Shown here: positions 23,701 to 51,734 of the stretch, in pieces
Layout of the letters: every line of letters begins with the position of its first letter
How positions within the stretch are numbered: position 1 is the first letter of the stretch
DNA from: Tubiluchus corallicola
Taxonomy: Eukaryota > Animalia > Priapulida
Length of the DNA stretch: 51,734 bases
Assembly: GCA_030141605.1 (NCBI GenBank)
Contig: JAQGDQ010001255.1
Span: forward strand, 1-51,734
Direction of reading: 5' to 3'
Made by a program: the position numbers and the translations under genes
The notes under the pieces: generated by a model
The model's database searches: none
The model's input: the letters and a program-made list of their open reading frames with translations, nothing else
What the model was told of the DNA's origin: nothing

Positions 23701-26700
23701 GAACTTGGCTTGTACATAATCTTACATGTTTATGCCAAGCTTATATTTCTTCTCGGTGTCTTTTTATGCGAAAATTTGGATCAATTTTATTTTAATAGTG
23801 TTCTTAATTATTCACAATCTTAAATTCAAGATTGTAATTAATCTACAATTATTAAATTCTGGAAACAAACTTATCCTGAAGGAAGGAACTGTAAAAAGGT
23901 CGAGATATTGGTTGATAGCAATAACGCTTGAATTGGGACCTGTCGAGATTGATGGGCCAGAAAAATTTAATGGTCTTGATGTTGATCTTGTAACTGAAAC
24001 TTCCCTGGTTCAATTCCAGGTTCTGTCCTAGACATTTCACATTTCCTTTTTTGTACAAGTTTGCTTTCAAAATTCAGCAATGTGGGGTTGTTCCATCACA
24101 CACTAAACTATAATGTATCAGTGTATTAATACTTCCTAGATTCCATTCTGCTGCTATAAATCTCATATCTGTTATTGCCTCATTTGCTTGGAATTTGTTT
24201 TTCAGAATTTGTACTTTTTGACGATTAGGCAGTTCTCTTGTTTTCGACACTGCTGTCTTGATCTTATCAACTAGACTGTACCCGTTGTTTTTTCCAGGTG
24301 GCGCGACAAGCGAAGGTACAGAGGTCACGTGACCTACACACTATTGGTGTCTACCGCGAGCGTACGAAACACGACGGGATACTGAATATACTTTCGCAGT
24401 CGATTACCACGAAGCACACAGTGTATGCCATGTTGGGACACGTAGAGTTTTTTGAATTTGTGTTGAAAAATCCGTACAATGTTGAGCACACGGTTACCAT
24501 AGAAATTAATGACAATGATCTGAGGTATACTTAAAATAGTTTATGTCTGCTTCTCTTTGAACTGTAAAATTTTTGCCAGAAGCTTTTTGCTTTGAACGTA
24601 TTTACTAAATTTAAGTATATTTCCTTTTAATAAGCTGCTGCTTGCTGCAGTCACTCATAAACATTTTTTTATTACTTAAAGGAAAACCGGATGAATGTGT
24701 AAATATTAGTTCAGAATAAAGAATGCTCTAAAATATTGAAAACTACAATAACGTTTTTTTAAATCAAAGGTTAGATTAAATAATAACTGCCTCGGATACT
24801 CAAATTTTATTAAACTTTCAAAAGCTACGCTCAGCTCAGTGAACCTACCAAGATTTGTAACGACGCCTTTTTTCACATTCGCGTGGCCGACAAATAGAAG
24901 GCGGTACTGTGATAACCATGATCATGAACGGCTGTGTTAGTTTCATGACGTCATATGACGTAAACCTCATTTTTCATGACATCATGCATTTAAACAGTAC
25001 TGTAACGCTTACGCAAATGTGCTTGACGCGCAAGGGAAGACGCCTGTCATTGCACAAACTGTGGTTAGTTTCTGACTTAAGCAATAGCTGTGTTCGGTTG
25101 CCGTTAATTAACTTTCTATGCTAATTATTCAAATGTAAGAAACAATTGCTAGCTTTTATAGGCAAGAAGATGTGTATTTTGGACAGTAAATTAAAATGAA
25201 ATTAAGTCTAAGCAATAATCCGGTTTTCCTTTAATGACTGTTCAAATGTGTAGTTGAGTTAAACTTAGACATTGTTTTAATAATTAAGTTTTTTAATTTA
25301 TTCAGAACTTGCTTTATTCGATTAAATTTTTGCTCAGTTTTAATGAGAATTGCCGTAATAAACTGAGGAAATAGATTACATCTTTGTTTTAATGGTCACT
25401 CCGATGTTGTTCTTCATGGAAAGGATTGAACAATGTTGATCAGTTTATTTTCATCGTACTTGTAATCTATTCAATTGTAAATGAAAGGGTAAAAATTAAG
25501 TAAATAGAAAAAATGACCTAGCCTGAACAAAGTAATTATATGACAAGCAAATCCGTTTTTGAGAATTTAAAATTTGATTAAATTACCTTGAATAGTTCTA
25601 CAAATCACTTAGTCAGAACATTTGATGACTACTTTAAGAAAAGAATTGAACGATAGTCGTTCCAATAAAACGGGTCTTGTGAGCATTTCAGCGTGTTTTT
25701 TGCAAAACCAATACCGGCAATCTTTTCGACGAAATCCCAACACTAAAGGAGGCACCATCAGATGCGATGTGCCACTCTACTGCACAATACAACCCCAACA
25801 TGAACTGTTTAGATTGAAGTACTTTAAACTTGTTGACTTTTTGTTGAAATTCTTTTCATACGGTATAGATGAACTCCCATTAAGGGGGGTGGGGCTTTGC
25901 TGTAAATGAATGTCTGCTTGTAGTTGCTCATTTTTGTGTTTTTCACTAATCCACAAAGATATTAAACCACTGCATGAACTCGTTTTTTGACGTAGATGTA
26001 AGAAACGCATCAAAATTATCAATAACTGCCTTTACTGAGATAAATTTTGTCTACATCATTATCAATTTATCATGTTGATGAAGAAGCCATCAAGGAGCAT
26101 CTGCTTGTCTGTCCAATCAGACCTAATTGTTGNNTAGTGGGATGCTGAATGCAAGTACATTTACAGTGTTCTTTTACATCCAGGGCCGTGTCAAGACTCA
26201 ACAACGCCCTAGCCTGATAGGTCTGTCCCGTCCATCTCTATTGTGAATTTATAATTGCTTATGTACAGAACAGATTAAGCAATTACTTGTGGTGTATTAG
26301 TAATACTATTATCCTAGTTTCTAAATGGTCGTTATCAATAGTGTGTATATCAGCTGCACCATATGCAGCAGGCTGAGCAATTGTTTGTTGTGTAGTGCCT
26401 TGTACTTGTTTGTTATATGGCACTTATATAGCAAATGGTCTCCGTAACTGCCTGTGGTGTGTTATAAAATGCTTGTTTTACAAGAATATGAATGGATACA
26501 CATTTACCGAGGAGAATAAGAATAAGCCTAAAATGTGGCGACCCTCAAACTTTGGCGCTCTAGGTTATAGCCTAGTTAGCCTATTGTTTAATACGTCCCG
26601 ATTCATATCTGCATCTGACTTTACTGGCTTATCATTACAGTGTGTGTTTAAGCAGTTTATGTGTCAGCTGGTCTTTATACGTAATGCGAAAATTAAGTTC

Positions 26701-29700: not shown

Positions 29701-32700
29701 GACTTGAGGCTAAAATTGTAGATTCAAATTTTGTAAAACATTTCAATTACATTCATTTTTTACAATTACACCGTTCAAAATGTTGCACAATCTTCACAGT
29801 CTTTGTGCACAATGTTTTTAGCTTCATTGTCATCATATCCCCGTTACATTTACTGTAGATTCTGGGCAGGCAGTATTCTAAAATAAAAAAAGAAATTTGC
29901 CCTGAAGACTGTTAAACACCTCGGTGATCCAGCAAAAAATTAGACACTGTGACTTGTGACCAGCACAAAATTAGATACCAGTGACTTGTCAGCACCATCT
30001 CCAAGCTATGATGGAAATTACAAATTATTTTTTAGCAAATTACAGTTCTCAACGAAGTGCATGCAAGACTGTTCTTTAATTTTGCCTTGTCTTTAAAACT
30101 GAATTCCAGTAGTGAATACTGAAGTTCAATTTGGGTAAAATTTGTAAACCAAAATACATTTTGATCCAAATTTGATTTCTGATAGCGTGTGTTGACACGT
30201 ATTCCTCGTGTTGATGATTGCAGACTCACTTACTGATTCTGATTCATGCCTGCGAGTCGTTTCACTATCTGAAGATTCTTCGTTTTTTTGCAGGTGCTCC
30301 CGTGGGCGGTCCAACCCAGCAGCAACTGTACGTGAAATGCAGCGACGCAACTGTGATATGCGAATCTAAACCCGTCCAAGCTGGAGAACCTCACGACATA
30401 TTTATCAAGGCAATTTAACAGCATTTTAAAAACAACTTTTTGCATTAATGTCATCCTAGTTTTCACTGCTAAACCAAACTTGCTGTTTCTGTTTGGTATT
30501 TCTTGTGTTTACGTGGAGATCAGTAGTAAATTTTCTTGTTACATGTTAGATTATCTGGCATATTGTGACAAGTTGCATCAAAGCACACCCAGATGTTGTT
30601 ACTAAGTGTAGATTTACAACTTGTTTCGAGTCTATAATTATCTATTGTCTATGTCTTGCAAACCCTTTAATGTTGCAAGCAGTGATGTTAACAAGTGATT
30701 GTTAGTCAATGAATTGTCGTATAGTTTGCTTAAAGGATTTTATTGTAATATTCCTCCACCAGGTGGCATGCGGTGCATCACCTCAAATTAAACGATTCTT
30801 CGTTTGTATATACCTGGATCCATTCCTCAGTAAGCCTGTTCAGACGTGGCAGTTCTACGTTCATTCGCTGCAGAGAGTTGATGTCGCGTGTGTTGAAGGC
30901 CAGACCAATCGGTTTTCTCTGATTGTGAGGTAAAATGCTATTATCTTTGTGTTTTGTAACTGTACAGATTCATCATAGTGTTATGGCTAAGTGGCTCTTG
31001 CAACATGCAAGACATAATAGTTTCTTAATTTTGGTTTAATAAATTACTAATATTTTTTTGAAAAATTTGGCTCTTTGCAACATAGAACCTAGTATTCAAT
31101 GGCAGGGCTTACTCAATTTGAATGATTATGATGAACTGGGAATGCAGCAAGATGAGCCACTGAACTAGCAGAGGTATCTTAACAAATTTTTGGATGTGCG
31201 TACATCTCCTATCTACGAGGTGAACAGCCAGAATCCACATGGTAAATGAAGCCGCTTAGAGCGAATGTTGAAATGGTTGATTATCCAGTCAGTGAGTAGA
31301 GAGTGAGCAGTTCTTGACATTGTTCGCCATGACTACTCGGCTGTGCATCTGGTCTCAGTTGCTTTCCAAACATTTTTCTGCATTCGATGCAAAATTGTGT
31401 TCATTACAAATGTGTAGAATACATTTTGCGGATACTACAAATGTATTCTGTAATTAAACTAAGTTCTATACTATTCTAAGAACTATGATTTTACTAATTG
31501 CACGAGGCGCTTATCACACTTTTATTAATAAACCCTTGTAACAGTTTTCGCAAACATTAAAATAAGCTTAACTTCTTAGAAGACTTGACTTTTCCTTTAA
31601 CTGGTGTATGAATTCAGCATTAACTGCACACAGTTATCAATAGTGAATCAAGAGGAAGTTAAAATGTCCGTAAATCTCAAAAACTCTTTATTGCGATTCC
31701 GAAAGCTTCTGAAGAAAAAATAAAGAATTTTTGAGATTTACGGACATTTTAACTTCTTCTTTTACGATTATGACTATGACAAATCTCAGAAGGGCACTAT
31801 CTCATTTTCAAGGTAGTAGCAAATCAAGTTCAGAAGAAAAATCTTGTTCTTTGACAGTTAACTTAATTTTGCTTGTGTGATTAATTAAATTCCTAATTCT
31901 TTGTGATTAGGCTGTTACTTTTAATTGTTTGCAGTGCAAATTACTAGTACTGACTGCTGTTAACTGAAGCTTTACGTCAGTTTTTTTTACTTTTTTAATG
32001 TTTTTTGTTGGCATCCTTCTGTCTCGGAAGACAATGGAATGTGCGCCAAGAGAGTCAGTTATTGATCACATTGATGGAGCTGCAGCATTTGCTGTGGTTG
32101 AGCAGTGCGATCCTTGAACGTCTCCAGAGCGCACGCCTGGGCAAGGTGTATGGAGATCCTGAGTTGCCCAGACAACAGCAACCCCTCTCTTCCTCCCTGG
32201 TGTAGTCTAAAGGAAAGCGGAACAATACGTTTGGCACGAGGTTGGCTGTAGGAGCTCCCGGAGTCAGTGAGCATGCTGCACTGGTCCGCCTTCGGGGCTC
32301 CACTCCTGATTTGGAAGGTTTAATCCTCTACACATGGCCATTGGGTCACTTGACCTCCTCCACCCTCTAGCCGTTGGCTGCTTGTGCAGCTCCTCCGCCT
32401 AGTGTCGAGATACAGTGTGGGCATCCCGCAAGCCTACAGCACCTGGTATTCCTAGGCGGTCACCCATCCAAGCACTAAGCAGGCTCTATGTTGCTTAACT
32501 TCGGTGATCAGACGAAAACCGGTGTTTTCAACGTGATTTGGCCGCAGTTTTTTTTAAATATAATATCTCATATATTACTGCTGTAAACCTTTAACCAAGT
32601 TTATTGATTTTTAGAGGCACTCAAGCATCCAGGTTTGTCTGTGCTTATTCTTCCCATCCTGCAGAGCTCCAGTTGCAGCCCAGGGAGCCGTTTATGTTGA

Positions 32701-35700
32701 CTGCTAACACGGTTCACGAGATACACGTCGGAGTCAGACCGCTGCAGACCGGGACGCGATTTTTGTAATTAATTAATGAATCGTTTGTCGGACGTATTTT
32801 GCGCAACACGTAGAACGATTGTAGGCTTAGATGAAATTGTTTTAGTAAGACAGATTAGCCAGAAAACGATTCCACGCAAAGTTGCATGTGATGTTTACTC
32901 CAAGATAGGAACAGATATGGGGAATTTCAGGACAAAATGCAAAAAATCAATAATATTTTGTTCTCTAAAATGCAAGTAGTATTTTGAGTGCATTGTGTGA
33001 TGGTTAGTAATGATGTACCATTGTAGTAATTCAAATTTATGTCACACTGAGTCACATGGCACATAGTTACTAGTGTTGCTCCGGGTATCCGATTTGTATC
33101 CGAAAATGGTGATATTCGCGAGATTTTGCTGATATTCGTATCCGATATTATCTGATAGTTATAAAAATTAAATATTCGCTATCCGGTTTTCGTAATGTGC
33201 AATTGAAAACGCTTTTCAAATAATTTAACAGCCGAGAATAAATAAAATATTACCAAAAAACTTACAGATCATTTTAGCCTATGTCTGAGTTTTCAAGACG
33301 AAAATTAAAAACATCTATTTTTGTTTGTGTGTAATAATACGGTGTATCTTCGGGCTAGGTTCCTTTAAGATGATAGACTAAACGAAAACGCTAAAGTTTG
33401 CAAACATTTACTAATTTTTCATCATCAGAACTGATCCGCATATTTGATCCGAATTTAGCTAATCTATCCGGGTATAATCCGAATCCGGAAGTCAATTTGA
33501 GGACATATTTAATGGTATCCAGTATCCAGCAAAAAAGTGTATCCGTAGCAACACTAATAGTTACCAAGTTTGCAAGTTTATGTTGAAAATTTCATGGTAC
33601 TGTATACATAGCTCACAAAGTGTGCAATTTGTATGTTCCTACTATTTTGTATGTTTTATCTGGCATTGTCTGTCTTTGCTAAAAGTTTTCTATTTTTTTC
33701 ATTTTTGACTTCTTTAATTTATTGGTTTGTGTCTCACTGGTTTGTTTTTGTTATTTTTGTAGGTTCGTGAATGTCGTTGATGTCGAATTCCATCAGCTGT
33801 TGCGCTCGTGGCTCGTCTGTGTGACATGTCAACCGCCTGTAATTACCAAGGTGTTTGAGCTGCAGTTACCTGCGGGCGGGGGTCATGGTTCAAACAAGGT
33901 AGGTTTCAACCCCCTGTAATTACCATGGTGTTTGAGCTGCAGTTACCTGCGGGCGGGGGTCATGGTTCAAACAAGGTAGGTTTCAACCGCCTGTAATTAC
34001 CAAGGTGTTCGCGTTGCAGTTACCTGCGGGCGGGGGTCATGGTTCAAACAAGGTAGGTTTCAACCGCCTGTAATTATCAAGGTGTTTGAGCTGCAGTTAC
34101 CTGCGGGCGGGGGTCATGGTTCAAACTAGGTAGGTTTCAACCGCCTGTAATTACCAAGGTGTTTGAGCTGCAGTTACCTGCGGGCGGGGGTCATGGTTCA
34201 AACAAGGTAGGTTTCAACCGCCTGTGATTACCAAGGTGTTCGAGTTGCAGTTACCTGTGGGCAGGGGTCATGGTTCAAACAAGGTAGGTTTCAACCGCCT
34301 GTGATTACCAAGGTATTTGAGCTGCAGTTACTTGTGGGCGGGGGTCATGGTTCAAACAAGGTAGGTTTCAACCGCCTGTAATTACCAAGGTGTTTGAGCT
34401 GCAGTTACCTGTGGGCGGGGGTCATGGTTCAAACAAGGTAGGTTTCAACCGCCTGTGATTACCAAGGTGTTCGAGTTGCAGTTACCTGTGGGCAGGGGTC
34501 ATGGTTCAAACAAGGTAGGTTTCAACCGCCTGTGATTACCAAGGTATTTGAGCTGCAGTTACTTGTGGGCGGGGGTCATGGTTCAAACAAGGTAGGTTTC
34601 AACCGCCTGTAATTACCAAGGTGTTTGAGCTGCAGTTACCTGTGGGCGGGGGTCATGGTTCAAACAAGGTAGTTTTTAACCGCCTGTAATTACCAAGGTG
34701 TTTGAGCTGCAGTTACCTGTGGGCGGGGGTCATGGTTCAAACAAGGTAGGTTTCAACCGCCTGTGATTACCAAGGTGTTTGAGCTGCAGTTACCTGCGGG
34801 CAGGGGTCATGGTTCAAAGAAGGTAGGTTTCAACTGTTTGTGATTACCAAGGTGTTTGAGCTGCAGTTACTTGTGGGCGGGGGTCATGGTTCAAACATGG
34901 TAGGTTCCGTATCATTTAATTTTTTAGTACTTTTTCACAGTGTTGTCACATGTCACATTGTTTTCACATTACTGCAACTTGGAAATTTTGCCGGTGATCG
35001 TTATAGTTTTTTGAAGATTATTTATTTTTGTATAGTGTAAAATCCTTATAAATACATGCTTGAACGCTGTACAGAGTGGCAAAAGAACATAAAGCTAATA
35101 CTAATGTGATCATTTAAAACAGATAAATAATACAAAATTTTGCAAGAAAAACTGTGTAAAATAAAATATGTGTTATAAAATAGTTAATCAAGCCGTTAGG
35201 AAGAAACAGTTCACTCCATATCAGCTTGAAATGTGAAAATCACAGTAAAACTCCCGCATATTTCCATCACAATAATAACAATAAAATTCGATTTGGTTAT
35301 AGAACTGCAAAACTTTATTAGTAACATTTTTTTTCATTGGCTTCGTTTATGCAGTGCTGGTGACCCAGAGATTTGTTAGCAGATGATGTTTTTGTTTCAA
35401 TGTACGTCATACATGACGATTTTGTTCATAATGCAAAAGAGTGACGGAAAAACAAATAAAATACTACGAACCAAAATAAAACAGTCTGTTTTCTCAAATG
35501 TTGCCTTTCGTAGCTTCTAACATCAAATTAATTAACTTCATATGAAGCTTGACAAAATGAAGCTGTTTTTGCTTACAAACATATATTGTATGTGATATTC
35601 ACTGTGACTAAGTGTGGGAGTATCAAGTTCCATTATTACGCATACGTTTTGATATTGCAGAAGATAACGTATACTAACCCATACGCTCAGAGGCGAGTCT

Positions 35701-37285: not shown

Positions 37286-38055
37286 AATAGACTTTGAGCT
37301 TTGATGATACGGTGTTTAATCTGTGGTGACAAATGTAAAAACTTAACAACATTTCACTGAAAATTGATGCACCATTTTAACTCTAATTACACAACTATTT
37401 GATACTTAACACAACATAATTGTGGAAAGTTGTAATGATGATGAGAAGTGGACAATGTCTGTGTGTAAGTTTCTGCTGACCAACACGGATTAATACTTAA
37501 CTCATGTACACACAAAAAATTGCACATAAACCCACGCCACTATATCCTTACCACCCACACCACGCCACACCCACCATGCTACCCACACTACACCACACCA
37601 TCATGCCACTGCCATTGCAGATGATGATGATGATAAGATTGATGCAATTTGAAATTGTGCAATGAAAAACGCTAGACCATCCACCAATAATTAGAAATGC
37701 ACACTGCTTCCATAATGACGGTATTGCAACCTAGGTTGCTAACTCTTAACAGATAGCTTTATACAGCCAACATAAAACTGATGAAACAGTCTGTAGGTAG
37801 AATATAATGGGTGACATCCAACAATGGATAACGCCCTACGCAATCCACATTTCGTAGTTCGCAACTCGCACTGAGAGCTGCAAAAAAACAAAAAAAAACT
37901 AAGTTTGAGTAAGGCCGCGTTTCCACTGCGTCCGCACAGACACAGACTTTTCTATCCGCACGTGTTACATCCGCAAAAGTTGTTTCCAATGGGACCGCAA
38001 TCATTCGTAAAATACGCCATCAATGAGCCAAAAGTTTGGCGCGAAATTCTAAACA

Positions 38056-38369
38056 TGAGACTTTCTAGAAGAAAGAAGATTTTTAATTTGCCGTGGTGGT
38101 TAAAGAAAAATGCAAGTAAGCGATACAGGAAGCAACAGCCACATTTTTGGGTACATCCAATATTTGAAAACTGTGGGCAGCTAAGTGAATATCATCATTT
38201 GTTGCAACAAGTTGTAATGGATGAAGAAAAGTGCCTTGGTTATTTGAGAATGCAACCTGCAACTTTCCGAATTTTACTTGATTTGTGTTCTGAATATCTT
38301 AAGAAACAGTACGCAAATTTTCGGGATTGTATTTCACCAGAACAGCGCCGTGTAGTTACGCTAGGGTAA
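38056..38369 (+). pseudogene. Harbinger transposase N-terminal fragment
   Basis: FWVHPI...EYHHLL...YLRMQPATF..LLDL...LKKQ..NFRDCISPEQR.VVTL is the typical Harbinger/HARBI1-like N-terminus; DDE core absent. Confidence 0.82.
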
Positions 38370-38689: not shown

Positions 38690-39365
38690 CTCTGGTGCAT
38701 TTTCTTTTACACTTCAATACGAAACTGCAAGTTCTTAAATGGGTCAAGTTGCCGCATCATTGGCACTAAACTCTGAAAAAAGCTCGTGACAATTTTTCAA
38801 TTGGTTGTGAAGACAAACGGTAGCACTTTCAATGAAATCTTGTGCTAAGCCTTAAAATTATCTACTGTAGCGTTTCTCCTTCTTATTACTAATATGTTGC
38901 AGTTGATTATGATTTTGCACGTCCATATGTTGCAATTTTTGCAACGTGTTTTCTAAGGGAATTTAAATAGACTAGTTGAATTCACTTCAAATAAAAAAGT
39001 GGCTTTTATTATAAAACTAACAATGTTTTGAAGCTTATTATTTTCTCCCTGTAACAGCGCAACAAAGCAATGTAATTTTCAGGGCAAAATCGAAATATTG
39101 TGGCAATAGAGAGTATAAGTACATGTATATACTACAAATGTAAAAAATGCATGCATCATAGCATCGGAAAATCAAGCCTAAATTTACAGGAACGTTAATT
39201 TAAAAACAAAACTACATAATAATTATATTCTATCTTGAGTATTAAGCTGAAAGGCCTCTTCGGCCCACAGCTATCTTGTAAAAACCCTGTGGCAGCATTT
39301 GGGATTACTTTTGTCATACAAAAAGGTCTGATCTCCACAGCGTGTACGAACTGTTCGTCCTCCAT
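38690..39365 (-). pseudogene. Harbinger accessory gene remnant (MADF/Myb-SANT N-terminus, BESS-like C-terminus)
   Basis: MEDEQFVHAVEIRPF/YDKSNP...LWAEEAFQL (with frameshift and stop) and FQSLVPMMRQLDPFKNLQFRIEV* at 38780-38709. Confidence 0.6.
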
Positions 39366-39619
39366 TATAAAAACGAGCTTATCCGTCCGCACAAAAAAAG
39401 GCCAAACAATTAAAGTGCGGAGCCGTGCGTATACATGGCTTTCCGTGCGGACGCAGTGGAAACGACATACACGTAAAACAATGGTATTCAAAGGCAGGCC
39501 ATTGTATCAATTTTTCCCGTGTGAGTCATATGAAAAAGTCTGTATCTGTGCCAGCGCAGTGGAAACACGGCCTAACTCCGCCACATTATCGTGTAGCCCA
39601 ATTCTTCCTCTTTCCAAAG

Positions 39620-40112: not shown

Positions 40113-41387
40113 TCTTAACAGTATGAGCGATGTATATATCTCCCTTTAACACCCCAATCAGTTGCCGTACGGATGTCTTTCCTACGCGTTGTTCCCCTTC
40201 AGTCAAAACTAGAAAAACATCGGCTAGTTGCTGGACTGTGGACACCACGCGGCCTTCCCGGGATGTCCAAATACTCCTACTACACACATCTTTGAGCAGG
40301 CTAACCACCCATTAGCCATCACCGGTCCTCTCGAAATAAAAAGTAAGTTTTGCAGAAAAAACACGGGAAAATGGCCAGTTGTTGACGTTTTTGGTCCTCA
40401 CTTCCTCCCGGTGGACTCGTCGAAAAATGAACCACCAATGTTACAACCTTGGACTGATGTACACCATAGTTAAAGAAAGGACGTCACTTTGCATATAGGA
40501 TTATGTCATGTTACAGCTTTACATAGAAATGTAGAAAGATACATAACAAAAAAATTGGAAAGAACTGTGTATAGAGCATGAAAATTAAATAACTTATACT
40601 GTAAAGCCGCTGTAAAGACATTTTCAGGTAACTGACATTCATTCGAAAATTGTGACGTAACTGGTGGACTTCGTGGCATTTCGTGAATACATAGTGGTTT
40701 GCCGTAAGCGCGTGCTTAAATTATTCACACTTCTGCAACTTACTCAACGTTTATGGAAAAATATCACAAAATTAGCTATCTAATTTTTTTGCAAAAACTG
40801 GTACTTTTGACAGAAGTGCCCTGCTTTTCTTCATGCCAATGAACGATGTTATTTATTATTGGTGGAAGAAGAGCGTTCAAAATGGGAGCAACAAGCGCTT
40901 TAAAGTAATTATATAAATTAAACGATCAAGGCGCCTATCTCACTTTTCTACTTCGCAAAAGGATTAGGCTTTTGTTTAACCTGTAAGCAGCATAGTGTAA
41001 TATTCTCTAAAAAATATAATCATCGGAATTTTAATATTGTTTACACGCACTATGGACGCAGCCATTATGGATGCTCTTATGTTATGCACATCTTCGCTAT
41101 TCGGTGAGCACACCAGATGCTGACCGAAAGATAAACACAGGGCGATGAAACTTTAGAACCCGGTGAATTCCCGGTTTGGAAAACAAGAAAATAAAAACAA
41201 AAAGGATCAAACATAAGCTGATAAATTAGATTAAATGTAGACAAACATATGCGCTGTTAAAAAAGAGCAAAACAAATTGATGAAATTATAATTAGAAGAC
41301 TGAAAGTAACAAAGTGTAATGAACAGCCCACCCCTCGGTTACAATGCACAATCCATGGTAACTTAGCGACGCCGACGCTCAGGCGGC

Positions 41388-41395
41388 TATATAAA
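41388..41395 (+). promoter_or_regulatory. LTR TATA box (TATATAAA)
   Basis: GC-flanked CTATATAAAGGG, present in both LTRs. Confidence 0.7.
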
Positions 41396-41477
41396 GGGAG
41401 GGCCAGGCCATTGACCACACACATCCGAACACTTTCAAAGTGATAAAGAACTACAGCAACTAAAGATTCATCTAAAC

Positions 41478-41500
41478 ATGGAAAAGAAGCAGGATGAGAA
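41478..41500 (+). CDS. Predicted first coding mini-exon of ORF3 inside the LTR (MEKKQDE+AA)
   Basis: First ATG after the TATA box, context AAACATGG, followed by donor GTAAGC (GTAAGT in the 3' LTR); phase 2 matches the acceptor at 49057. Confidence 0.65.
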
Positions 41501-41569
41501 GTAAGCTTTAACTTACTAGATAAAGCTAGCTTTCAAAACTAGCTAGGATGTGTCAGAATCTAGAACCTA

Positions 41570-42466
41570 GAAAAGAGTTCCAGAAATGAAAAAAGTTCCA
41601 GAAACACTAGGTTCTAGAAACCAAAAGAGAAGCTAGAAAAGGGTTCCAGGATTAAAGCAGTTGCAGAGACAAAAATAGTTCCAGAAAGTTTCTAGATTTA
41701 AAAGAGTTGCTGAGAGTTCCAGGAAAATCCAAGGTCAAAACAGTTCGAGAAATTTCCTGGAATTAAAAGAGTTGCAGAAATTTCCAGGAATTAAAAGAGT
41801 TGCAGAAAGTTCCTGGAATTAAAAGAGTTGCAGAAAGTTCCTGGAATTAAAAGAGTTCCAGAAAGTTCCTGGAATTAAAAGAGTTGCAGAAAGTTCCTGG
41901 AATTAAAAGAGTTGCAGAAAGTTCCTGGAATTAAAAGAGTTCCAGAAAAAGAGTTGCAGAAAGTTCCTGGAATTAAAAGAGTTCCAGAAAATTCCTGGAA
42001 TGAAAGAGTTCCAGAAAACTCCTGGAATGAAAGAGTTCCAGAATTGAAAAGAGTTGCAGAATTAAAAAGAGTTCCAGAATTGAAAAGAGTTGCAGAATTA
42101 AAAAGAGTTGCAGAATTAAAAAGAGTTCCAGAATTGAAGAGTTGCAGAATTGAAAAGAGTTGCAGAATTAAAAAGAGTTCCAGAATTGAAAAGAGTTGCA
42201 GAATTAAAAGAGTTGCAGAATTAAAAGAGTTGCAGAATTGAAAAGAGTTCCAGAAATGAAAAGAGTTGCAGAAAGTTCCTGGAATTAAAAGAGTTGCAGA
42301 ATTAAAAGAGTTCCAGAATTGAAGAGTTGCAGAATTGAAAAGAGTTGCAGAATTAAAAAGAGTTCCAGAATTGAAAAGAGTTGCAGAATTAAAAGAGTTG
42401 CAGAATTGAAAAGAGTTGCAGAAAATTCCTGGAATGAAAAAGTTCCACTTGAAAAAAAGTTGCAGA
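41570..42466. repeat. Satellite array inside the 5' LTR, core AAAAGAGTT(G/C)CAGAATT, 17-18 and 29 bp units
   Basis: Direct periodicity. Confidence 0.95.
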
Positions 42467-42979
42467 TCACAAGTTAGCTAGCTATTGATCCGGGGTTATT
42501 CGAGATCTTATACAAATAAGTGAAAGAAGAGACTGGATCATAGTTTTGCTCACTTTTAGTTAAATATGGAACAGGAACATAGTACAAATACACAGGATTG
42601 GCATGAAAATTGCAACTGCTTAATCTTACTGAAACCTGGACTCTAGCATTCTTTGCATGACCAATTGCAATTGCTATAGAAGATTTCTTTAACTAGAAAC
42701 AAGAATAGTATTGATGATTGTGGATTTTACCTAACTAAAATTAGCTGTATTTTATAGTAAAGCCAATAGAATAAATTATTTTTAATCTTAGTTCACTTGT
42801 TGTTGCTTTTACTCAGTTTAAATTTGAATTACAAGTAGCCTCAAGATATTGTCAAAGCTGAACCCAACATTTTTTTTATGTAAAAATAAAGTAAAATAAA
42901 GTTAGTTGCAGAAGTCAATGATAGGTGGCACTTTAACCTAATATCATACCCTTAAGCCGAGCTGTGCCACACTACATTT

Positions 42980-42997
42980 TGGGGGCTCGTCCGGGAT
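42980..42997 (+). promoter_or_regulatory. Primer binding site, tRNA-Pro
   Basis: TGGGGGCTCGTCCGGGAT is the 18-nt complement of the tRNA-Pro 3' end. Confidence 0.95.
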
Positions 42998-43067
42998 TTT
43001 GAATTTTGTTTTGAGGCATTGTGATTCAAACTGAGTAAGAACGGCAAGCTGTAATAAAATTGGTAAA

Positions 43068-44495
43068 ATGACAGCTATATTATCCTACTTAAAATCCTTT
43101 CTGACTTCCACTCCTAAAAGTAGCACTGATACAATTGTGGGAGCACAAAATACAGAGGTCCACACAGAAAATGCTATGCATAAGATGGAAACAGATGGAG
43201 CAGAACAAGATAGAAAATTCAGCAAGAGAAGAGCAACACTCCCAGCAGCACTGCAAAAAGAAGAAAGCTTGCAGCCGACTACATTACAGATAACACCATC
43301 TGTAAAACCAAAAACAACTTTATCCAATCTCGGTACACCTAGTACTGAAAGCAAGCGAAAACGTGCGAGACATACAGGCTGGATTGAAGCACCACCTGTA
43401 GAAGTACATTCACCATGGTCAGAATGGTCAACAGAGGGAAATGCATCAGAAGCTGGTGAAGAAGTAGAACCAAGATGGCCACATATAAGTTATACAACAC
43501 CAAATCAGCCTGAAGTTGGATGGACACCACTGCCCCATCTTACCAGACAGTCAACTCCAACTGCGACAACACAAGCAAAAGGAGCAGGCAAAATACGCAA
43601 AGAAAAGAAGCCTCCTACTTTTAAAACAGGAGATGGCTTGCAGTTCAGACAATTTATTGCAAAGTTTGAACTAGTTGCAAAACACAACAATTGGCCAAGA
43701 ACTGAATGGGTTACCCACCTACCCTTATGCTTGGAAGGGGATGCACTTGAAGTTGCCATGGAAATGGATTTGGATTCTGGTGAAGTGACTTACATGTCAC
43801 TCATCCAAGCACTGGGTAAACGCTTTGATCCGGCTGAACGCATGCTACAACATCGCAGTGAGCTGAGGCATCGAATGAGAAAATTAAGTGAAACTCCGGA
43901 AGAATTTGGAGCTACAGTTCGACGTTTGTTTGGCTTAGCCTATCCTGGTTTGTCAAAAGAAGCTAGTGAAGCTTTACTAATTGATAAATACCTGGAAGGA
44001 CTTGGTGACATAGAAGTCAGAAAGCATGCCAGCCTCCAGGAACCAAAAACGCTTGAGGATGCAATAACAAAAGTTGCACAATATGAGGCAGTGACTAAGG
44101 AGGCCGCCGAAGCTAGAAGCAAGAAGCCGCTACAACCGAGAATCAACCAAGTGAATTATACACACAAAGCATCATCAAGCAAAGAAATAACTTTGGAAGA
44201 AATTATGAAAGAGCTGAACAGTGTAAAATACCAGCTGCGTGAACTCACTAATACTGAAAAACAAGAAAAGAAGTTTAATGTTGAATCAAATATGCAAAAA
44301 CAAAATGAGGTGAGAAATCAAAATGACTGGCGTGCGAAGGTTGAATGTTACTACTGTCACAAGCCTGGACATGTGATGAGATTTTGCAGAGAAAGATTTC
44401 CCAAGATGACACAGTTTTCGATAGCTACATCTCCAAAAAGACCAAGAGAAGAAGCTGTTGGTTCTGAAAACCAGGTACGCAAGCAGTTAAACTAA
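43068..44495 (+). CDS. gag: Gag polyprotein (475 aa)
   Basis: Capsid-like FIAKFELVAKHNNW...LEGDAL segment; CCHC knuckle CYYCHKPGHVMRFC. Confidence 0.93.
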   Translation: MTAILSYLKSFLTSTPKSSTDTIVGAQNTEVHTENAMHKMETDGAEQDRKFSKRRATLPAALQKEESLQPTTLQITPSVKPKTTLSNLGTPSTESKRKRARHTGWIEAPPVEVHSPWSEWSTEGNASEAGEEVEPRWPHISYTTPNQPEVGWTPLPHLTRQSTPTATTQAKGAGKIRKEKKPPTFKTGDGLQFRQFIAKFELVAKHNNWPRTEWVTHLPLCLEGDALEVAMEMDLDSGEVTYMSLIQALGKRFDPAERMLQHRSELRHRMRKLSETPEEFGATVRRLFGLAYPGLSKEASEALLIDKYLEGLGDIEVRKHASLQEPKTLEDAITKVAQYEAVTKEAAEARSKKPLQPRINQVNYTHKASSSKEITLEEIMKELNSVKYQLRELTNTEKQEKKFNVESNMQKQNEVRNQNDWRAKVECYYCHKPGHVMRFCRERFPKMTQFSIATSPKRPREEAVGSENQVRKQLN

Positions 44496-44572
44496 AGGAG
44501 ACCGGGCACGGGGCCAGTGTCCCGGTCATGAATACACAGGCCTCAGGAATACTACCTTGCACTGGCCCCGTG
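44486..44572 (+). promoter_or_regulatory. -1 ribosomal frameshift signal with pseudoknot
   Basis: G TTA AAC, 7-nt spacer, stem 44500-44506/44521-44527, loop 44507-44519 complementary to 44560-44572; pro is in the -1 frame and open to this site. Confidence 0.75.
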
Positions 44573-47500
44573 ACGGGAAAGCAAGAGGTAGTTGTAGCTC
44601 TGAACAAAGAAGAAGTAGTTATTCCTCCTCACTCCGATCTGATAAAGAAGAGAAGTGAGAACATTGTAGTTCTACCAGTAGATTATAAATATTGTTGGCA
44701 TGTAGAATTATTAATCAACAGTTTAGATGTAGATTTTGTAATCGATAGTGGAGCCAGTGCTAGCATATTAGATGTTTACATGTATTATAGTATTCCGGAA
44801 GAAGAAAGACCAGTCTTGAAAAGCGCTGAAAAGAATCTTCAAGCAGCTAGTGGACACACACTGATTCAAATGGGAGAAGCTGAATTCCAAGTTATATTAG
44901 CTGGAATAAGTCACACTGATTCAAATGGGAGAAGCTGAATTCCAAGTTATATTAGCTGGAATAAGTACCACTAGTACAATGATTGTCGCTTCCATTGGAG
45001 GGCCTTTCGGAATTTTAGGATTAGATTTTCTTGAACCAAGAAGTGCTGTGCTAGATATGCAGCAAGGAATTCTCCATATTGGTGAAGTTACTATACAATG
45101 TTTCAAGAATTCAGTGGATAGTTCAGACTATGAACATGAGTCTTCTTCAGATAATCAGATTGACTTAGTGTTGCCAGAAAATATTGGTGAAAGGGCAGCT
45201 CCAAAATCTCTGCTCCCTGAGCACTTGCATCAACTAATAGAAGAAATCAGCTCTAAGCTTTCACCTAGTGAGCAATCTTCTCTCATAAATTTGATACAGG
45301 AATATCAGGATATATTTGTGGGGCCCGATAATAAATATGGCAGGACAAACTTGGTAAGACACGTTATTGACACTGGTACTGAGCACCCAGTTAAACAAGC
45401 TCCGAGAAGACTGGCTGAACAGAAAAGAGCCATTGCTGAAGCTGAAATAAATAAAATGCTCAAAGAACAAATTATTGAACACAGCAACAGTCCCTGGGCC
45501 TCACCGATCGTGTTGGTGACTAAAAAGGATGGCTCCACACGATTTTGCGTTGATTATTGTCAGTTAAATGAAAAGACAATTAAAGATGGGTTTCCACTGC
45601 CAAACATTCAAGAGATTTTTGACACATTACGTGGGTCCCACTGGTTCTCTACTTTCGACCTAGCTAGCGGGTATTGGCAAGTTGAAATGGATGAAACGTC
45701 GAAGCCTAAAACAGCTTTTGTTACACGACAAGGATTATTTCAGTTTCGAGTGATGCCGTTTGGCCTTTGTAATGCACCAGCCACATTTGAGAGGTTAATG
45801 GAAGAAGTACTTAGAGGCTTACAATGGAAGAATTGTCTTGTCTATCTCGATGATATTATTGTTTTTGGCAAAAACTTTGAAGAGGCTAAAAATAATTTAA
45901 AGACAGTATTTTCTCGCTTGAGGAAAGCAAATTTGAAAATCAAGCCATCAAAAAGCACACTGTTTCAGACAAGTGTTCGGTTCCTAGGGCATGTAGTGGA
46001 TAGTCAAGGCATCCGATGTGATCCAGACAAAATACTGGCTGTAAAGAATTGGACATTCCCAAAAACACCTACACAAGTACGTAGCTTCTTGGGATTTGCT
46101 TTATATTATAGAAAATTCATTCCACATTTTGCCTCAATTGCAGACCCCCTTACTGCCTTGACAAAGAAAGGAGCAACATTTATTTGGAATGATTCATGTA
46201 TGGCAGCATTTAACACCTTAATAGATCTTTTAACACGAAGTCCTGCATTGGCATATCCAACACAGGAGGGAAAATTCATCTTAGATACAGATGCCAGTAA
46301 CTCTGGGATTGGAGCTGTTTTATCCCAGTTACAAGTCGATGAAGAGAAAGTCATTGCTTATGCTAGTAGGACATTAAACCAGTCACAAAGGCAGTACTGT
46401 ACTACAAAAAAAGAATTACTGGCTGTTATCACATTTGTAAAACAATTCCACCATTATCTATGGGGAAGACATTTTAGGATTCGGACTGATCATGCAGCAC
46501 TAACTTGGCTCATCAATTTCAAGAACCCAGAAGGTATGATAGCAAGATGGTTATCTATTTTAGACACTTATGATTTTAGTGTTGAGCATAGAAAAGGAAC
46601 ACAACATGGGAATGCTGATGGATTATCCAGAAAACCAAATACAAGGGTTAGCAAATGCCCAAGAGAGGACTGTAATGACGACAGGCATAAAGGCACGAAA
46701 GAAGCCCACAGTTCTAAAGAAATTAGCAAGAGGACACGTAACGATATTTTAAAAGTTCCAAACAATGCTGAGTGTGATTTTATCTATGCAATACCAGCTG
46801 GAAATGGAGAAGAGGAAAGCAGTAGTTTCAGAAAAGGTAAAGTAAGATGTAGAAAAGAATGCTTATGCATGGAAGGTAATTCCAGAAAGGGGGAAGATGG
46901 ACTTGACAATGTTTATGAAGACCAGGAAGCAGCGCACAGACTGTGCATAACAGAGGCACCTACTTGTGGAAAGGATGCAGCGCACGACTTGTGTTCTGTA
47001 GAGGCTCCTGGTGATATCAGGGAAGCAGCGCAGAAATCGTGTTTGGTAGAGGCTCCTCCTCATATGGAAGAAGCAGCGCACGATTTGTGTTTAGGAGAGG
47101 CTCCCTATATGGCTGAGGAAGCAGCGCATGGTTCATGTTTTGTAGTGGCTCCCAGCAGAATATTGGCAAGTCAAGAAATAGAGGTAGAAGATGAAGAAGA
47201 GAAAAAGTTTGTTTTAGATTTGTCAAGAGAAGATGTTATTAACATGCAACAGGAAGAGGAAGCAGTTTTGTTATTCAAGGAGTTGAAAGAAGAAGATTTG
47301 GACCGACCCAGCTGGAAAGATGTGAAAGATAAACACCCAGATTTCAAGGCATACTGGAACTTGTTTGATGTATTAGAGGTACGAGATGGATTGCTGTACA
47401 AGAAGTGGGAAACAGATGTAACACCAAGTGCTCCTGTATACCAGATGGTTGTACCAACTGCATTACGAAGGAAATTATTTAGAGCTTTGCATGAAACCAG

Positions 47501-48768
47501 AACTGGTGCACACCAAGGAATACAGAGGAGTCTGTCATTATTAAAGCAACGGTATTACTGGCCAGGTTATCAGGCAGACATTAAAAGATGGTGCCTATAT
47601 TGTGCTGCTTGTGCCAGAAGAAAACCTGGAAAAGGACCAAAAAGAGGTAAACTGCAACAACAGAGGGCAACTGGACCATTTGAAAGAATAGCAATAGACA
47701 TTTTAGGACCACTAGAAGAGACTGATAAGAAAAATAAGGTGGTGATGGTCGTCTGTGACTATTTTACAAAATGGGCCGAAGCCTATGCACTTCCTAATCA
47801 CGAGGCATATACTGTTGCAGATGTGTTGGTGACCGAATTTATATGCAGGTTTGGAGTACCAATTCAAATACATAGTGACCAAGGGCCAGACTTTGAGTCA
47901 AAGTTATTTCAAGAAATGTGTGCTGCTTTGCAGATTGACAAAACAAGGACAACCCCGTATCATCCACAATCAGATGGTCTCGTTGAGAGATTTATGAGGA
48001 CATTACAGCAAATGCTGGCTATATTTGTTAACGATCATCGTGATGACTGGGATGACCACCTCCCTTATGTCATGATGGCATACAGGGCAACCGCACATGC
48101 GTCTACCAATTGCTCGCCAAACTTAATGATGTTTGGTAGGGAAAACCATTTGCCATTAGATGTGATGGTGGGACCTCCACCACAGCCAGAAAGACCTACA
48201 CAGTGTCCACAGGAATACGTAGAATGGATAAGAGATGTTATAAAAGAGGCACACAATTTTGCTCGAGAATCACTGGGAAAAGCTGCAGAAAGACAAAAAC
48301 GAGATTATGATCAATTTGTGAAAAGGCTTAGCATTGATAAAGGTAACTGGGTATGGTACTGGTATCCACCAGCTACCAGGAGAAAATTAGGCCAAGGCTG
48401 GCAAGGCCCATATCTAGTACTAAAGAAGATTAATAATGTGACATACCAAATCCAGAGAGATGCAAAAGCTCCTGTTAAAGTAGTTCATATTGACAACTTG
48501 AAGCTTTATCATACTGATGAACCACCAATAGACTGGACAGAAATAGAGAAACTAGCAAATTCTGATGATGAACAGCAACTAGAAGAATTTGAATTGAGTA
48601 GAATTTTTCCTACAGTTAATGAAGAAGTAGCAGAGAAAGAAGAAATGTATACAACAGGAACTACCACAATTCAAGAAAAAAAATGATGAACCGTCCAGTA
48701 GCACTTCTGACACAATGCTAGGAAGAGGACAGCGGATGAGGAAACCTCCAAACAGACTTGACCTATAA
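44486..48768 (+). pseudogene. pol: Pol (PR, RT, RNase H, IN), frameshifted by a 55-bp duplication and in an A8 run near the C-terminus
   Basis: PR FVIDSGAS; RT SPWASP, MPFGLCNAPATF, YLDD; RH DTDAS, TKKELLA, RTDH; IN HHCC, IDILGP, HSDQG, GLVER, GPY. Confidence 0.95.
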
Positions 48769-49057
48769 CTTAACCATATTTTCTTCCTTTCCTCTGCTGC
48801 TGCATTAATTTTCTGTTAAAAGCTGTTATCTGGATTAGTTGCCCTGGGCAAGGCATTAAACTGCATCCAGCATAAGAAAAAAAAATATAGAAAAGTATGA
48901 GTTAGTGACACTTGATAATCACATGTCACTTAGAAATGTGTCACTTATTACAATTACAATGTAGAAAAAAAAGAAATAGGCAAAGGTACCTTAGTAAAAA
49001 AAAAACGTAACAGTGGAAAATGAAGTTATTAAAACACTGTTATTTTGTCTATTTTAG

Positions 49058-50006
49058 GAGGGAGACAGTGTACTGTTGTACAAACTGTGACTATAGGTCT
49101 CAAAGGACTGCCTATATGTCAAAACACTGGAAGGCATGTCATGGGAGTAGACAAATTCCCGCTACTTGGCCAACTAAGCGTCTTGAAAGGCCACCTCAGG
49201 CAACCTCTGTTGATAAAAGACCTCTGTCACCAGAAGGATCACCAAGATTGAGCCGCTCCAAATGGAGTACAACTAGTGACAGCAGTCTGGAAAGAAAAGA
49301 CGGGAAGAAAGAGCGAGATTTAAAGAGTCATAATCAGAGGTCGGAACAGGAAAGCAAAATCAAAACAGCAAAATCACCCAAAACAAAAAGAGGAACTTCC
49401 CCAGTTACAGTAAGGCCTGAGTTAAGTAATCCGAAGAACAGGGCCTTCAAGCCACCAACAAGCAACTCAACCTTCAGAAATTTCAGAAGCAGAAGTATTG
49501 TGAGGCAGAACAGCACCCATAACCTGACCAACCAAGTTAGAAAACCAACTAGACCTGCCTTACCACACTATAAACCATACAAGGAAACACAGTCGAAAAA
49601 TCTGCCAGTATTCCTTGCACCGCAGTCGGACAAGGTGCCACGAAAAGCTCCACCTCCATGCACAGAGCTAGATCAGATAGTCATGAGGGAAAAGATATTA
49701 AAATTAAAAAATGAGATCATGGAACTAGAGGAGCGATGCAGGGTAGCAGCTCTAAATAAGTGGGAAGCAGTTTTAGAGAAGAAGAGTAAAGAAATTACGG
49801 AGAAGAAAGAAAAAGAGTGGAATGAGGCAGTTGATCGTATGTATGAGAGAATGGAAACAACTGTAAGCAAGTTGGTGAGAAAGGAGGTGGAAAAGTTGGC
49901 TGAAAAGAAGAACACTGAAGGTCAACAACAAATGCCACCCACAAATACAGATATTTCTATAGATCTAGCTGTCTCCTCGGATGACTTCTCCAGTGAAGAG
50001 GACTAA
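49058..50006 (+). CDS. ORF3: C2H2 zinc finger, basic disordered region, coiled coil, acidic tail (not env); second exon of a predicted spliced mRNA
   Basis: Uninterrupted ORF 49020-50006; CTNC-x12-H-x4-H; no signal peptide or TM stretch; acceptor tattttgtctattttAG at 49057. Confidence 0.8.
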
Positions 50007-50445
50007 GGCCATGCAGCTACGTTCCAATATATATTCATACCTACGTTCAACCTACGTTCATATATACATTCCAATATTTCCTAGATAAATTAGATTAAAA
50101 ATTATATATCTTTTATATATATATATATATCATTTGAAGGAATATATCAGCATATCTACAACGGGTTGTTCCAGTATTATATACTTGCTTATTTACTTAT
50201 ATTGTTTACTAGAATGGTGCTATCAAGAATATGTATGGATGTATAAAAATTCCGTTATATTTTACAAGTAAATAAAGCTGTATTCAGTTTAGTAAGTATA
50301 TAAGCTGTATTGGATTTCAATATCAGGATGGCAAAGAAACAAAAAAAAAAAATTTTAAAGGAGCAGTCAACAAAACTCAACAATAGTTTGGTAAGCATAC
50401 CTGATGCTGACAGGAGACAGAGCACCTGAGGGCAGGTGCAGTTTT

Positions 50446-50458
50446 AAGAAAGGGGGAA
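50446..50458 (+). promoter_or_regulatory. Polypurine tract
   Basis: AAGAAAGGGGGAA immediately before the 3' LTR. Confidence 0.9.
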
Positions 50459-50459
50459 T

Positions 50460-51734
50460 TGTAATATTCTCTAAAAAAAATATAATCATCGGAATTTTAA
50501 TATTGTTTACACGCACTATGGACGCAGCCATTATGGATGCTCTTATGTTATGCACATCTTCGCTATTCGGCGAGCACACCAGATGCTGACCGAAAGATAA
50601 ACACAGGGCGATGAAACTTTAGAACCCGGTGAATTCCCGGTTTGGAAAACAAGAAAATAAAAACAAAAAGGATCAAACATAAGCTGATAAATTAGATTAA
50701 ATGTAGACAAACATATGCGCTGTTAAAAAAAGAGCAAAACAAATTGATGAAATTATAATTAGAAGACTGAAAGTAACAAAGTGTAATGAACAGCCCACCC
50801 CTCGGTTACAATGCACAATCCAGGGTAACTTAGCGACGCCGACGCTCAGGCGGCTATATAAAGGGAGGGCCAGGCCATTGACCACACACATCCGAACATT
50901 TTCAAAGTGATAAAGAGCTACAGCAACTGAAGATTCATCTAAACATGGAAAAGAAGCAGGATGAGAAGTAAGTTTTAACTTACTAGATAAAGCTAGCTTT
51001 CAAAACTAGCTAGGATGTGTCAGGAATCTAGAACCTAGAAAAGAGTTCCAGAAATGAAAAGAGTTCCAGAAACACTAGGTTCTAGAAACCAAAAGAGAAG
51101 CTAGAAAAGGGTTTCAGGATTAAAGCAGTTGCAGAGACAAAAAGAGTTCCAGGAAAATCCAAGATTTAAAAGAGTTGCTGAGAGTTCCAGGAAAATCCAA
51201 GATTTAAAAGAGTTGCTGAGAGTTCCAGGAAAATCCAAGATCAAAAGAGTTCCAGTAATTTCCAGGAATTAAAAGAGTTCCAGTAATTTCCAGGAATTAA
51301 AAGAGTTGCAGAAATTTCCTGGAATTAAAAGAGTTGCAGAAATTTCCTGGAATTAAAAGAGTTGCAGAAATTTCCTGGAATTAAAAGAGTTGCAGAAATT
51401 TCCTGGAATTAAAAGAGTTGCAGAAAATTCTTGGAATGAAAGAGTTCCAGAATTAAAAGAGTTGCAGAATTAAAAGAGTTCCAGGAATTAAAAGAGTTCC
51501 AGAATTAAAAGAGTTGCAGAATAGAAGAGTTCCAGAATAAAAGAGTTCCAGGATTAAAAGAGTTGCAGAATAGAAGAGTTCCAGAATTAAAAGAGTTGCA
51601 GAATTGAAAAGAGTTGCAGAATAGAAGAGTTCCAGAATTAAAAGAGTTGCAGAATTGAAAAGAGTTGCAGAATTGAAAAGAGTTGCAGAATTTAAAGAGT
51701 TGCAGAACTTAAAGAGTTGCAGAATTTAAAGAGT
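50460..51734 (+). repeat. 3' LTR (partial), satellite from ~51038 to the window end
   Basis: Direct repeat of 40996 onward with scattered substitutions and A-run indels. Confidence 0.95.

Follow-up and report, generated by a model that had tools for sequence, protein, structure and literature searches.

LTR retrotransposons are usually presented as gag-pol elements with or without env, and examples of element-encoded regulators are, to our knowledge, scarce (CERV, and VANC from a DNA transposon of plants). CERV, encoded by the Ty3/Gypsy element Cer1 of C. elegans in a non-env ORF situated after pol and before the 3' LTR, is described as a nuclear RNA-export factor made from a spliced mRNA, with a Cys-rich putative zinc site and a role in regulating its element's own RNA (PMC10309623). 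In the errantiviruses ZAM and Beagle, env is reported to begin, upstream of gag, with a first exon that is short and coding (PMC12992720). Since both errantivirus env (PMC12992720) and CERV (PMC10309623) are spliced third genes, the concept of a 'complex retrotransposon' is not new. The initial annotation of the locus described here had proposed such an element, with a spliced ORF3 as nuclear regulator in place of env: the gene itself is real, as judged from its open frame and signs of selection, and splicing from the LTR appears to be the best reading of the signals and of the relatives, but the idea had already been realised by Cer1/CERV (PMC10309623). We give about an even chance to the complete reading, in which an intact third gene, its mRNA likely spliced from an LTR exon, encodes a predicted 323-aa nuclear zinc-finger protein regulating the element's own expression.

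The window, i.e., the whole stretch of 51,734 nt analysed, contains on its forward strand (to which all features below belong) a Ty3/Gypsy LTR retrotransposon, with an LTR pair, a primer-binding site, a polypurine tract (50446..50458), and gag followed by pol in the order PR-RT-RH-IN. The 5' LTR (40996..42976; 1981 nt, TG...CA) was delimited by alignment to the 3' LTR and by a boundary in a contig of run X1, which at 42976 crosses from the LTR end into a different flank; because of this passage, X1, a run of unstated kind, looks like DNA. The 3' LTR (50460..51734) is cut off by the window end, repeats the TATA box, exon 1 (50945-50967), donor and array, and differs from the 5' LTR by 7 substitutions in 625 aligned nt. 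The TATA box (41388..41395) is the sole TATAAA within 41000-43100, and its context, CGGCTATATAA, is common to the LTRs of this element, L002 and L027. Candidate poly(A) signals at 42770, 42885 and 42895 (42770..42900), recognised by sequence, would put both donor and array within R. The primer-binding site (42980..42997), which we take to be of the tRNA-Pro type, is of the same type in L031 and L214. The gag gene (43068..44495) is Ty3 capsid-like (Pfam PF19259, E 2e-6) with a CCHC knuckle, and pol (44468..48686) carries a frameshift in the window copy, where a tandem duplication (44857-44966) lies within the protease region. The closest named integrases are from bivalves and gastropods (49-54%), and the integrase tree was built without reference elements of named clades such as C-clade, MolGy and CsRN1.

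ORF3, which follows pol, is supported as a real, conserved-looking gene. Its main exon (49058..50006) encodes one C2H2 finger (49077-49142), a basic, disordered middle rich in Ser, Arg and Pro, one long charged helix (49665-49922, by prediction) and an acidic tail. An open frame of 315 codons is expected from composition with P of about 4e-9, and the remaining five frames over ORF3 carry 10-26 stops. The X1 contig over ORF3 shows 10 substitutions, 6 of them synonymous (P 0.08 for this count by itself), and one 3-nt deletion; beyond ORF3, eight of nine indels have a length not divisible by 3. The finger matches C-x2-4-C-x12-H-x3-5-H with a hydrophobic core, but its Pfam match (PF23225, E 0.002, 18.2 bits) lies under the cut-off of 27, and it is of low confidence in a single-sequence structure model. 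Because no 19-residue stretch holds more than 10 hydrophobic residues, ORF3 is not an env; this identity was rejected also for want of an env family match in Pfam, and ORF3 thus differs from the F-type envelope glycoprotein described for errantiviruses (PMC12992720). A canonical coiled coil is likewise not supported for the helix, which is 49% charged and has a best period of 3.8 without a heptad period. Homologue searches with ORF3 gave nothing but one generic finger, all Atlas matches were below 0.9, and a viral contig search gave no match.

Splicing through a weak LTR donor probably removes array, primer-binding site, gag and pol and yields the ORF3 mRNA. The coding part of the predicted exon 1 (41478..41500; 23 nt, seven codons plus 2 nt, phase 2) starts at the first ATG 3' of the TATA box. 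The predicted phase-2 donor (41501..41506) has C at +6 in the 5' LTR and T in the 3' LTR, scores 3.1 and 4.7 bits, respectively, with the matrix applied here, and is the sole donor of at least 2.5 bits between TATA+25 and 44310. On the other side, a pyrimidine tract with its AG (49038..49057) ranks first among 738 AGs in 41510-49300 by a crude pyrimidine score, and position 49058 falls on a third codon position within the open frame 49011-50006, i.e., also phase 2. The predicted intron (41501-49057) measures 7557 nt, and the joined product comprises seven codons, one split codon and 315 codons, 323 aa in all. The ATG in its context, the donor in both LTRs, and the acceptor with its joined frame, all of which the initial annotation had proposed, were each confirmed by the sequence check; it did not mention an in-frame ATG at 49020, the pol frameshift or the weakness of the donor. 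When the 150 nt that follow TATA+25 were resampled 5000 times with a Markov model, the succession of a first ATG, an open frame and a phase-2 donor arose in 0.9% (5' LTR) and 0.4% (3' LTR) of cases. As for conservation, named there as a check, X1 contigs show no change at either ATG or GT, and dN/dS for ORF3 comes only from a related family (see below). One sister contig, diverged and inspected by hand, keeps a pyrimidine tract and AG before a phase-2 position despite a different upstream sequence; the conserved tract can also be read as a conserved short peptide. Contigs of X1 and X2 over 48700-51020, a region that includes the 3' copy of exon 1, and over 42470-49120 contained no joint to 49058, which counts neither way as contigs cannot show absence; X2 has no contig over ORF3.

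The predicted arrangement resembles that of env in the subclades of ZAM and Beagle, with a main exon after pol and a short peptide-coding exon upstream of gag (PMC12992720). CERV is described as a 517-aa protein from 5 exons, three of which are in the gag frame, with a putative C4 site plus a G-domain (PMC10309623), whereas ORF3 would have one intron, its first exon in the LTR, and a C2H2 finger; the searches made with ORF3 reported no homology between the two. Furthermore, CERV shares exons with gag, whereas the gag-frame donors of the window (44310 and 44475) are of phase 0, out of phase with ORF3, so that an in-frame Gag-ORF3 fusion was rejected. A third slot with swappable non-env cargo is also described in LTR elements of bdelloid rotifers; their cargo differs (GDSL esterase, DEDDy exonuclease, TM or coiled-coil), and the word 'zinc' is absent from the text (PMC5408684).

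In the reading that we prefer, a single primary RNA would start at the LTR promoter, and its unspliced form would serve as genome and gag-pol mRNA; there the LTR ATG opens merely an 8-codon uORF whose stop lies inside the donor. If the protein is made, we give a little less than an even chance to its acting as an activator or anti-silencing factor on the DNA or chromatin of the element's own LTR. In that role finger and basic region would bind, and the long helix would recruit partners or further copies of the protein itself; against this stands that a single zinc finger is a poor DNA binder. The obvious candidate target would be the tandem array of the LTR (41520..42470; 28- and 18-nt units), which lies downstream of the TATA box, inside the predicted intron. 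This array contains heat-shock elements (HSEs) of the canonical three-unit form, 3 perfect (starting at 41744, 41856 and 41982) and 22 with one mismatch; 41 kb of flank has 0 perfect ones, and the part of the 3' LTR within the window has 0 perfect and 12 one-mismatch elements. Through these elements the array might make the retrotransposon stress-inducible, and it leads one to expect heat-induced activity in the host, which is likely a marine invertebrate. The same HSE pattern was applied to Ty3 LTRs of Macrostomum lignano and to ONSEN, where 1-4 HSEs are described upstream of the start site (PMC12801592), unlike the 950-nt intronic array found here. As a model of the proposed function, the VANDAL/VANC system likewise pairs an accessory anti-silencing protein with a tandem motif in the element; VANDAL is a plant DNA transposon with an unrelated protein (PMC6719617), and the pairing of protein and motif in the window is only proposed.

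Alternatively, ORF3 might be spliced as proposed but act on RNA in the manner of Rev, Rex or CERV, binding unspliced RNA, perhaps at the R-region array, and enabling its escape from splicing or its exit from the nucleus. We consider this rather unlikely, even though Cer1/CERV provides the genetic logic (PMC10309623), the basic Ser/Arg/Pro-rich middle would suit an RNA-binding protein, and the intronic position of the array means that only unspliced RNA would carry it at the 5' end. The 3' R of both RNAs also holds the array, no NES-like motif was found in ORF3, no search reported a sequence likeness to CERV, and tandem fingers of relatives model like DNA-binding fingers: the two-finger module of one relative resembles those of Tramtrack/CTCF (best E 0.0045).

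It is less likely still that ORF3 starts at its own ATG (49020..49022; 38 nt upstream of the acceptor, in frame, A at -3), through an internal promoter or internal initiation, with the LTR ATG and donor serving only as a uORF and a U1 site that controls polyadenylation. For such a donor, foamy virus offers a precedent: its major splice donor is described in R, inside the LTR and upstream of the poly(A) signal (PMC3694450), although the donor in the window is preceded by an ATG and lies about 1.3 kb from the poly(A) signal. In the sister contig, too, an in-frame ATG precedes the acceptor, but at a place that does not match the window's, whereas the acceptor phase does match. Most relatives likewise have their own ORF3 ATG, but just after the acceptor, and the window's lies before it; L007 carries a TATA box immediately ahead of ORF3, but 48300-49019 in the window has none. 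The phase match of the first ATG with the only donor (P under 0.01) also speaks for splicing from the LTR. That ORF3 is a captured host zinc-finger fragment, a passenger without a role, is very improbable: its generic finger matches would fit, as would ORF3 families that are mutually unlike and scattered over the integrase tree (which forces at least 8 label changes), but against it stand the 315 open codons, the in-frame indel and the synonymous excess, a dN/dS of 0.17-0.19, already well below 1, among three copies of one related family (saturated pairs gave no usable value), which suggests purifying selection on the finger ORF3s of relatives, and a two-finger family conserved across seven elements, in which C/H and the N-x-x-Y motif are invariant.

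A comparison of 97 related families revealed a C2H2 ORF after pol on the same strand in 25, and on the antisense strand in none, with a strict finger pattern composed after the sequences were seen; it is quoted because a loose pattern gave 7-11 antisense matches per 97. That such third ORFs are common across the whole group, and that the LTR satellite is HSE-like, had been missed by the initial annotation; we found no such widespread class in the literature searched. After removal of L040 (a simple repeat) from the 31 loose matches, an in-frame ATG lies within 12 nt of the best acceptor in 12/30, compared with 30/388 for other AGs (10/26 where a stricter null predicts 4.2, P 0.003), and in 3/30 the finger follows the acceptor directly without an intervening ATG; for these three ATG-less relatives, the search for a coding LTR exon gave no clear candidate. 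Acceptor strength by itself did not exceed that of families lacking a finger ORF (P 0.13) or of far spacer (P 0.22). Four finger-bearing families, the window included, have both a whole LTR and, upstream, a plausible TATA box; in all four the distance from a TATA box to the best LTR donor downstream of it is 60-119 nt, but donor scores on the antisense strands of those LTRs were equal or higher; a general rule of a donor after the TATA box was not found across finger families, several of which have no good donor near it.

If a quarter of the group's families carry a selected, spliced C2H2 gene, self-regulation would be common, such ORFs have probably been taken for host zinc-finger genes in annotations, and many protein-LTR pairs would be at hand for testing self-activation of transposons or their escape from silencing. 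A bolder extension, which we regard as doubtful, is that this large invertebrate Gypsy group consists of 'complex' retrotransposons, each with a spliced, often swapped C2H2 regulator of varied tail recognising, in its own LTR, a sequence specific to the family; in the window's family the intronic HSE array would be the target, and regulator and stress together would switch from spliced to genomic RNA. Among the ORF3s, SUMO-interaction (SIM) and corepressor motifs (PxDLS, PxVxL) are not enriched. NLS-like motifs occur in 14 of 31 (8.9 in shuffles, P 0.016), and the tails across the group include a charged helix, BTB and a TatD nuclease.

The window holds one Ty3/Gypsy element, spanning 40996 to the window end, which comprises a 5' LTR (40996-42976), a PBS (42980-42997) that we take to be of the tRNA-Pro type, gag (43068-44495), pol (44468-48686; domain order PR-RT-RH-IN), a third open frame termed ORF3 (49011-50006), a PPT (50446-50458) and a 3' LTR starting at 50460. 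The two LTRs carry 7 differences over 625 aligned positions. The closest named integrases are those of Mytilus, Pinctada and Littorina (49-54%), which may point to a host resembling molluscs or to some other marine invertebrate. A tandem duplication (44857-44966) frameshifts pol of the window copy in the protease region; since a contig from X1, a sequencing run that looks like DNA, disagrees with the window here, the pol break is not family-wide, and the duplication is particular to the window copy or to the assembly. The RNase H-integrase linker (46925-47152) contains four in-frame 48-nt repeats. The element is CpG-poor relative to the flank (o/e 0.34-0.40 vs 0.64), which hints at methylation. 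The leader before gag (41415-43067; 1.65 kb) includes 14 ATGs, given which gag translation from unspliced RNA would need reinitiation, shunting or internal entry.

We consider ORF3 to be real and its splicing probable, and propose a function for it from sequence and by analogy. An open frame of 315 codons is expected by chance with P ~4e-9. Across ORF3 (948 nt), an X1 contig showed 10 substitutions, all transitions and 6 of them synonymous (P 0.08 alone), and a single 3-nt deletion; outside ORF3, 8 of the 9 indels among those listed were not multiples of 3. Among the gag and pol changes listed (40 of 91 rows), 15 of 32 were synonymous, and the synonymous share of ORF3 did not differ from that of this gag/pol subset (Fisher P 0.72). 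The predicted protein has one C2H2 finger (C-x2-C-x12-H-x4-H; Pfam E 0.002, below cut-off), a basic, S/P-rich, disordered middle and an acidic tail, and searches for ORF3 homologues found no specific one. A helix at 203-288 is predicted with pLDDT >90 over most of its length; its period of 3.8 and 49% charged residues do not support a heptad coil.

The initial annotation proposed that the ORF3 mRNA is formed by splicing a short LTR exon (41478-41500) to 49058, and its coordinates proved correct throughout: ATG 41478 is the first after the TATA box, a phase-2 donor follows 41500, the acceptor ends at 49057, 49058 is a third codon position, and the spliced frame has 323 codons. Although weak, scoring 3.1 bits (4.7 bits in the 3' LTR version), the donor is the sole one of at least 2.5 bits from TATA+25 to 44310; the two gag donors are phase 0. 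The acceptor ranks first among 738 AGs by a crude score, and a first ATG, an open frame and a phase-2 donor occurred jointly in 0.4-0.9% of 5000 resamples. Without splicing, ATG 41478 starts an 8-codon uORF whose stop lies inside the donor. An in-frame ATG at 49020, 38 nt upstream of the acceptor, counts against a start supplied by splicing. In a diverged sister (one contig, loose end before 49070), a near-identical pyrimidine tract and AG precede the finger region; read by hand over 30 letters, its acceptor is also phase 2, yet 12 nt further in, and it too has an upstream in-frame ATG, at a position not matching the window's. Candidate poly(A) signals at 42770-42900 would place the donor and the LTR array in R, as with the donor of foamy virus (available text of PMC3694450). 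In ZAM and Beagle, the start of env comes from a short coding exon that precedes gag (PMC12992720, available text).

An integrase alignment used as query retrieved 46 plus at least 80 loci, animal-type Gypsy DNA in prokaryote bins or metagenomes. Such contigs were numerous in prokaryote bins G001 (119 matches), G002 (9) and G005 (11), where they are likely host contamination; 72 contigs of G001 and 8 of G005, chosen from the match list, were added. The 195 sequences with an integrase C-terminus, including the window, formed 156 families at 85% identity, 97 of which (window not counted) had at least 900 nt beyond pol. Finger ORFs recur among them: in 25 of the 97 families a strict C2H2 pattern was found close to the beginning of an ORF that is on the same strand and at least 100 aa long (antisense, 0 of 97), and a loose pattern in 31 same-strand vs 7 antisense. 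Because 17 of the 25 strict families come from G001, the hosts are not independent. In a quick integrase tree (92 rows) the finger label was clustered, yet 14 changes were needed, 8 of them forced by well-supported branches; the window's group has 15 rows, 7 finger-bearing. Signs of selection are seen in three pairs among loci L011, L012 and L015 (ORF3 dN/dS 0.17-0.19; integrase 0.05-0.07), the remaining pairs being saturated or without an ORF3 call. In one two-finger family the C/H positions and an N-x-x-Y motif are invariant across seven elements; a search for named relatives of its own kind found none, and its model weakly matches Tramtrack and CTCF fingers. Third ORFs combine a finger with a BTB/POZ domain (L167, 7326-9089) or a TatD nuclease (L194, 9097-11439; also L195, 9115-11262, with a doubtful finger). 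At L007:2167-5373, a two-finger ORF3 has a TATA box directly before it and a 735-aa ORF rich in Arg/Ser after it, an arrangement that may represent an internal promoter and a fourth gene. Further long post-pol ORFs without Pfam match lie at L009:5921-6775, L022:6894-10067, L088:7301-11509 and L075:8440-9537.

Rotifer elements carry assorted non-env ORF3s (available text of PMC5408684). Literature searches turned up no account of animal Gypsy elements with a C2H2 third ORF; supplements, Repbase and subscription journals may contain some. The word 'zinc' occurs 0 times in PMC13524379 and in the available text of mollusc and annelid surveys (PMC6238403, PMC8556966, PMC8220671), and the accessible portions of PMC3383448 and PMC2774666 hold nothing further on such ORFs. 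The main value of the analysis is a widespread, overlooked finger-ORF3 class, together with the array of heat-shock elements (HSEs).

In 12 of 30 loose-pattern families, an in-frame ATG lies no more than 12 nt from the best acceptor (sought within 260 nt of the finger), and the corresponding count for other AGs is 30 of 388; under a stricter null, the pairing was observed in 10 of 26 (4.2 expected, P 0.003). A window-like acceptor followed by the finger, with no ATG in between, occurs in 3 of the 30, for which a search for a coding LTR exon gave none convincing. Taken by itself, the acceptor score in finger families exceeded neither that of families lacking a finger (P 0.13) nor that of far spacer (P 0.22). 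Where whole LTRs were delimited by hand, four elements (the window's, L002, L027 and L031) have their best donor 60-119 nt past a TATA box, the exceptions being L011, without a TATA match, and L016, whose TATA match is near the LTR end; several finger families have no donor near TATA. Among seven finger-less LTRs, four show a TATA match, and in a single case (L097) a comparable donor lies near such a match; donor scores are equally high on antisense strands. Taken together, the acceptor, ATG and donor patterns in relatives lend group-level support to predicted splicing into ORF3 and modest support to a putative first exon within the LTR, with a coding first exon seen in the window element only.

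We propose that the LTR would drive transcription, that the splice is quite likely used, and that the ORF3 protein would be nuclear and act on its own element. It may be an activator or anti-silencing factor binding the LTR, a reading we slightly favour, modelled on the VANDAL anti-silencing protein VANC, which works with a tandem motif (PMC6719617, available text). It could instead be a Rev/CERV-like RNA factor, CERV being the nuclear export factor of Cer1 in C. elegans that is made from a spliced mRNA whose end is a post-pol ORF (accessible part of PMC10309623); this seems rather unlikely, because the relatives' tandem classical fingers and BTB tails resemble chromatin proteins, and the LTR-binding factor is preferred for that reason.

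The LTR array (41520-42470) contains 3 perfect and 22 one-mismatch three-unit HSEs, compared with 0 perfect and 10 near ones in the 41-kb flank; in shuffled 28-nt units the probabilities are ~0.0004 for a perfect and ~0.01 for a near HSE. The 3' LTR part inside the window (satellite 50990-51734) has 0 perfect and 12 near HSEs. In flatworm Ty3 LTRs heat induction is driven by HSEs, which, unlike the window's array, are upstream of the start site (PMC12801592, available text). Four other satellites (9621-10640, 13922-17220, 19298-20708 and 33829-34906) contain no perfect HSE. Elsewhere, the window has a lone 5S rRNA match (32431-32549, minus strand; 90 bits), a weak tRNA-like match (23956-24028, plus strand) and two short frames without Pfam match (37875-38369 and 39198-39506), which by eye look like Harbinger transposon remnants.
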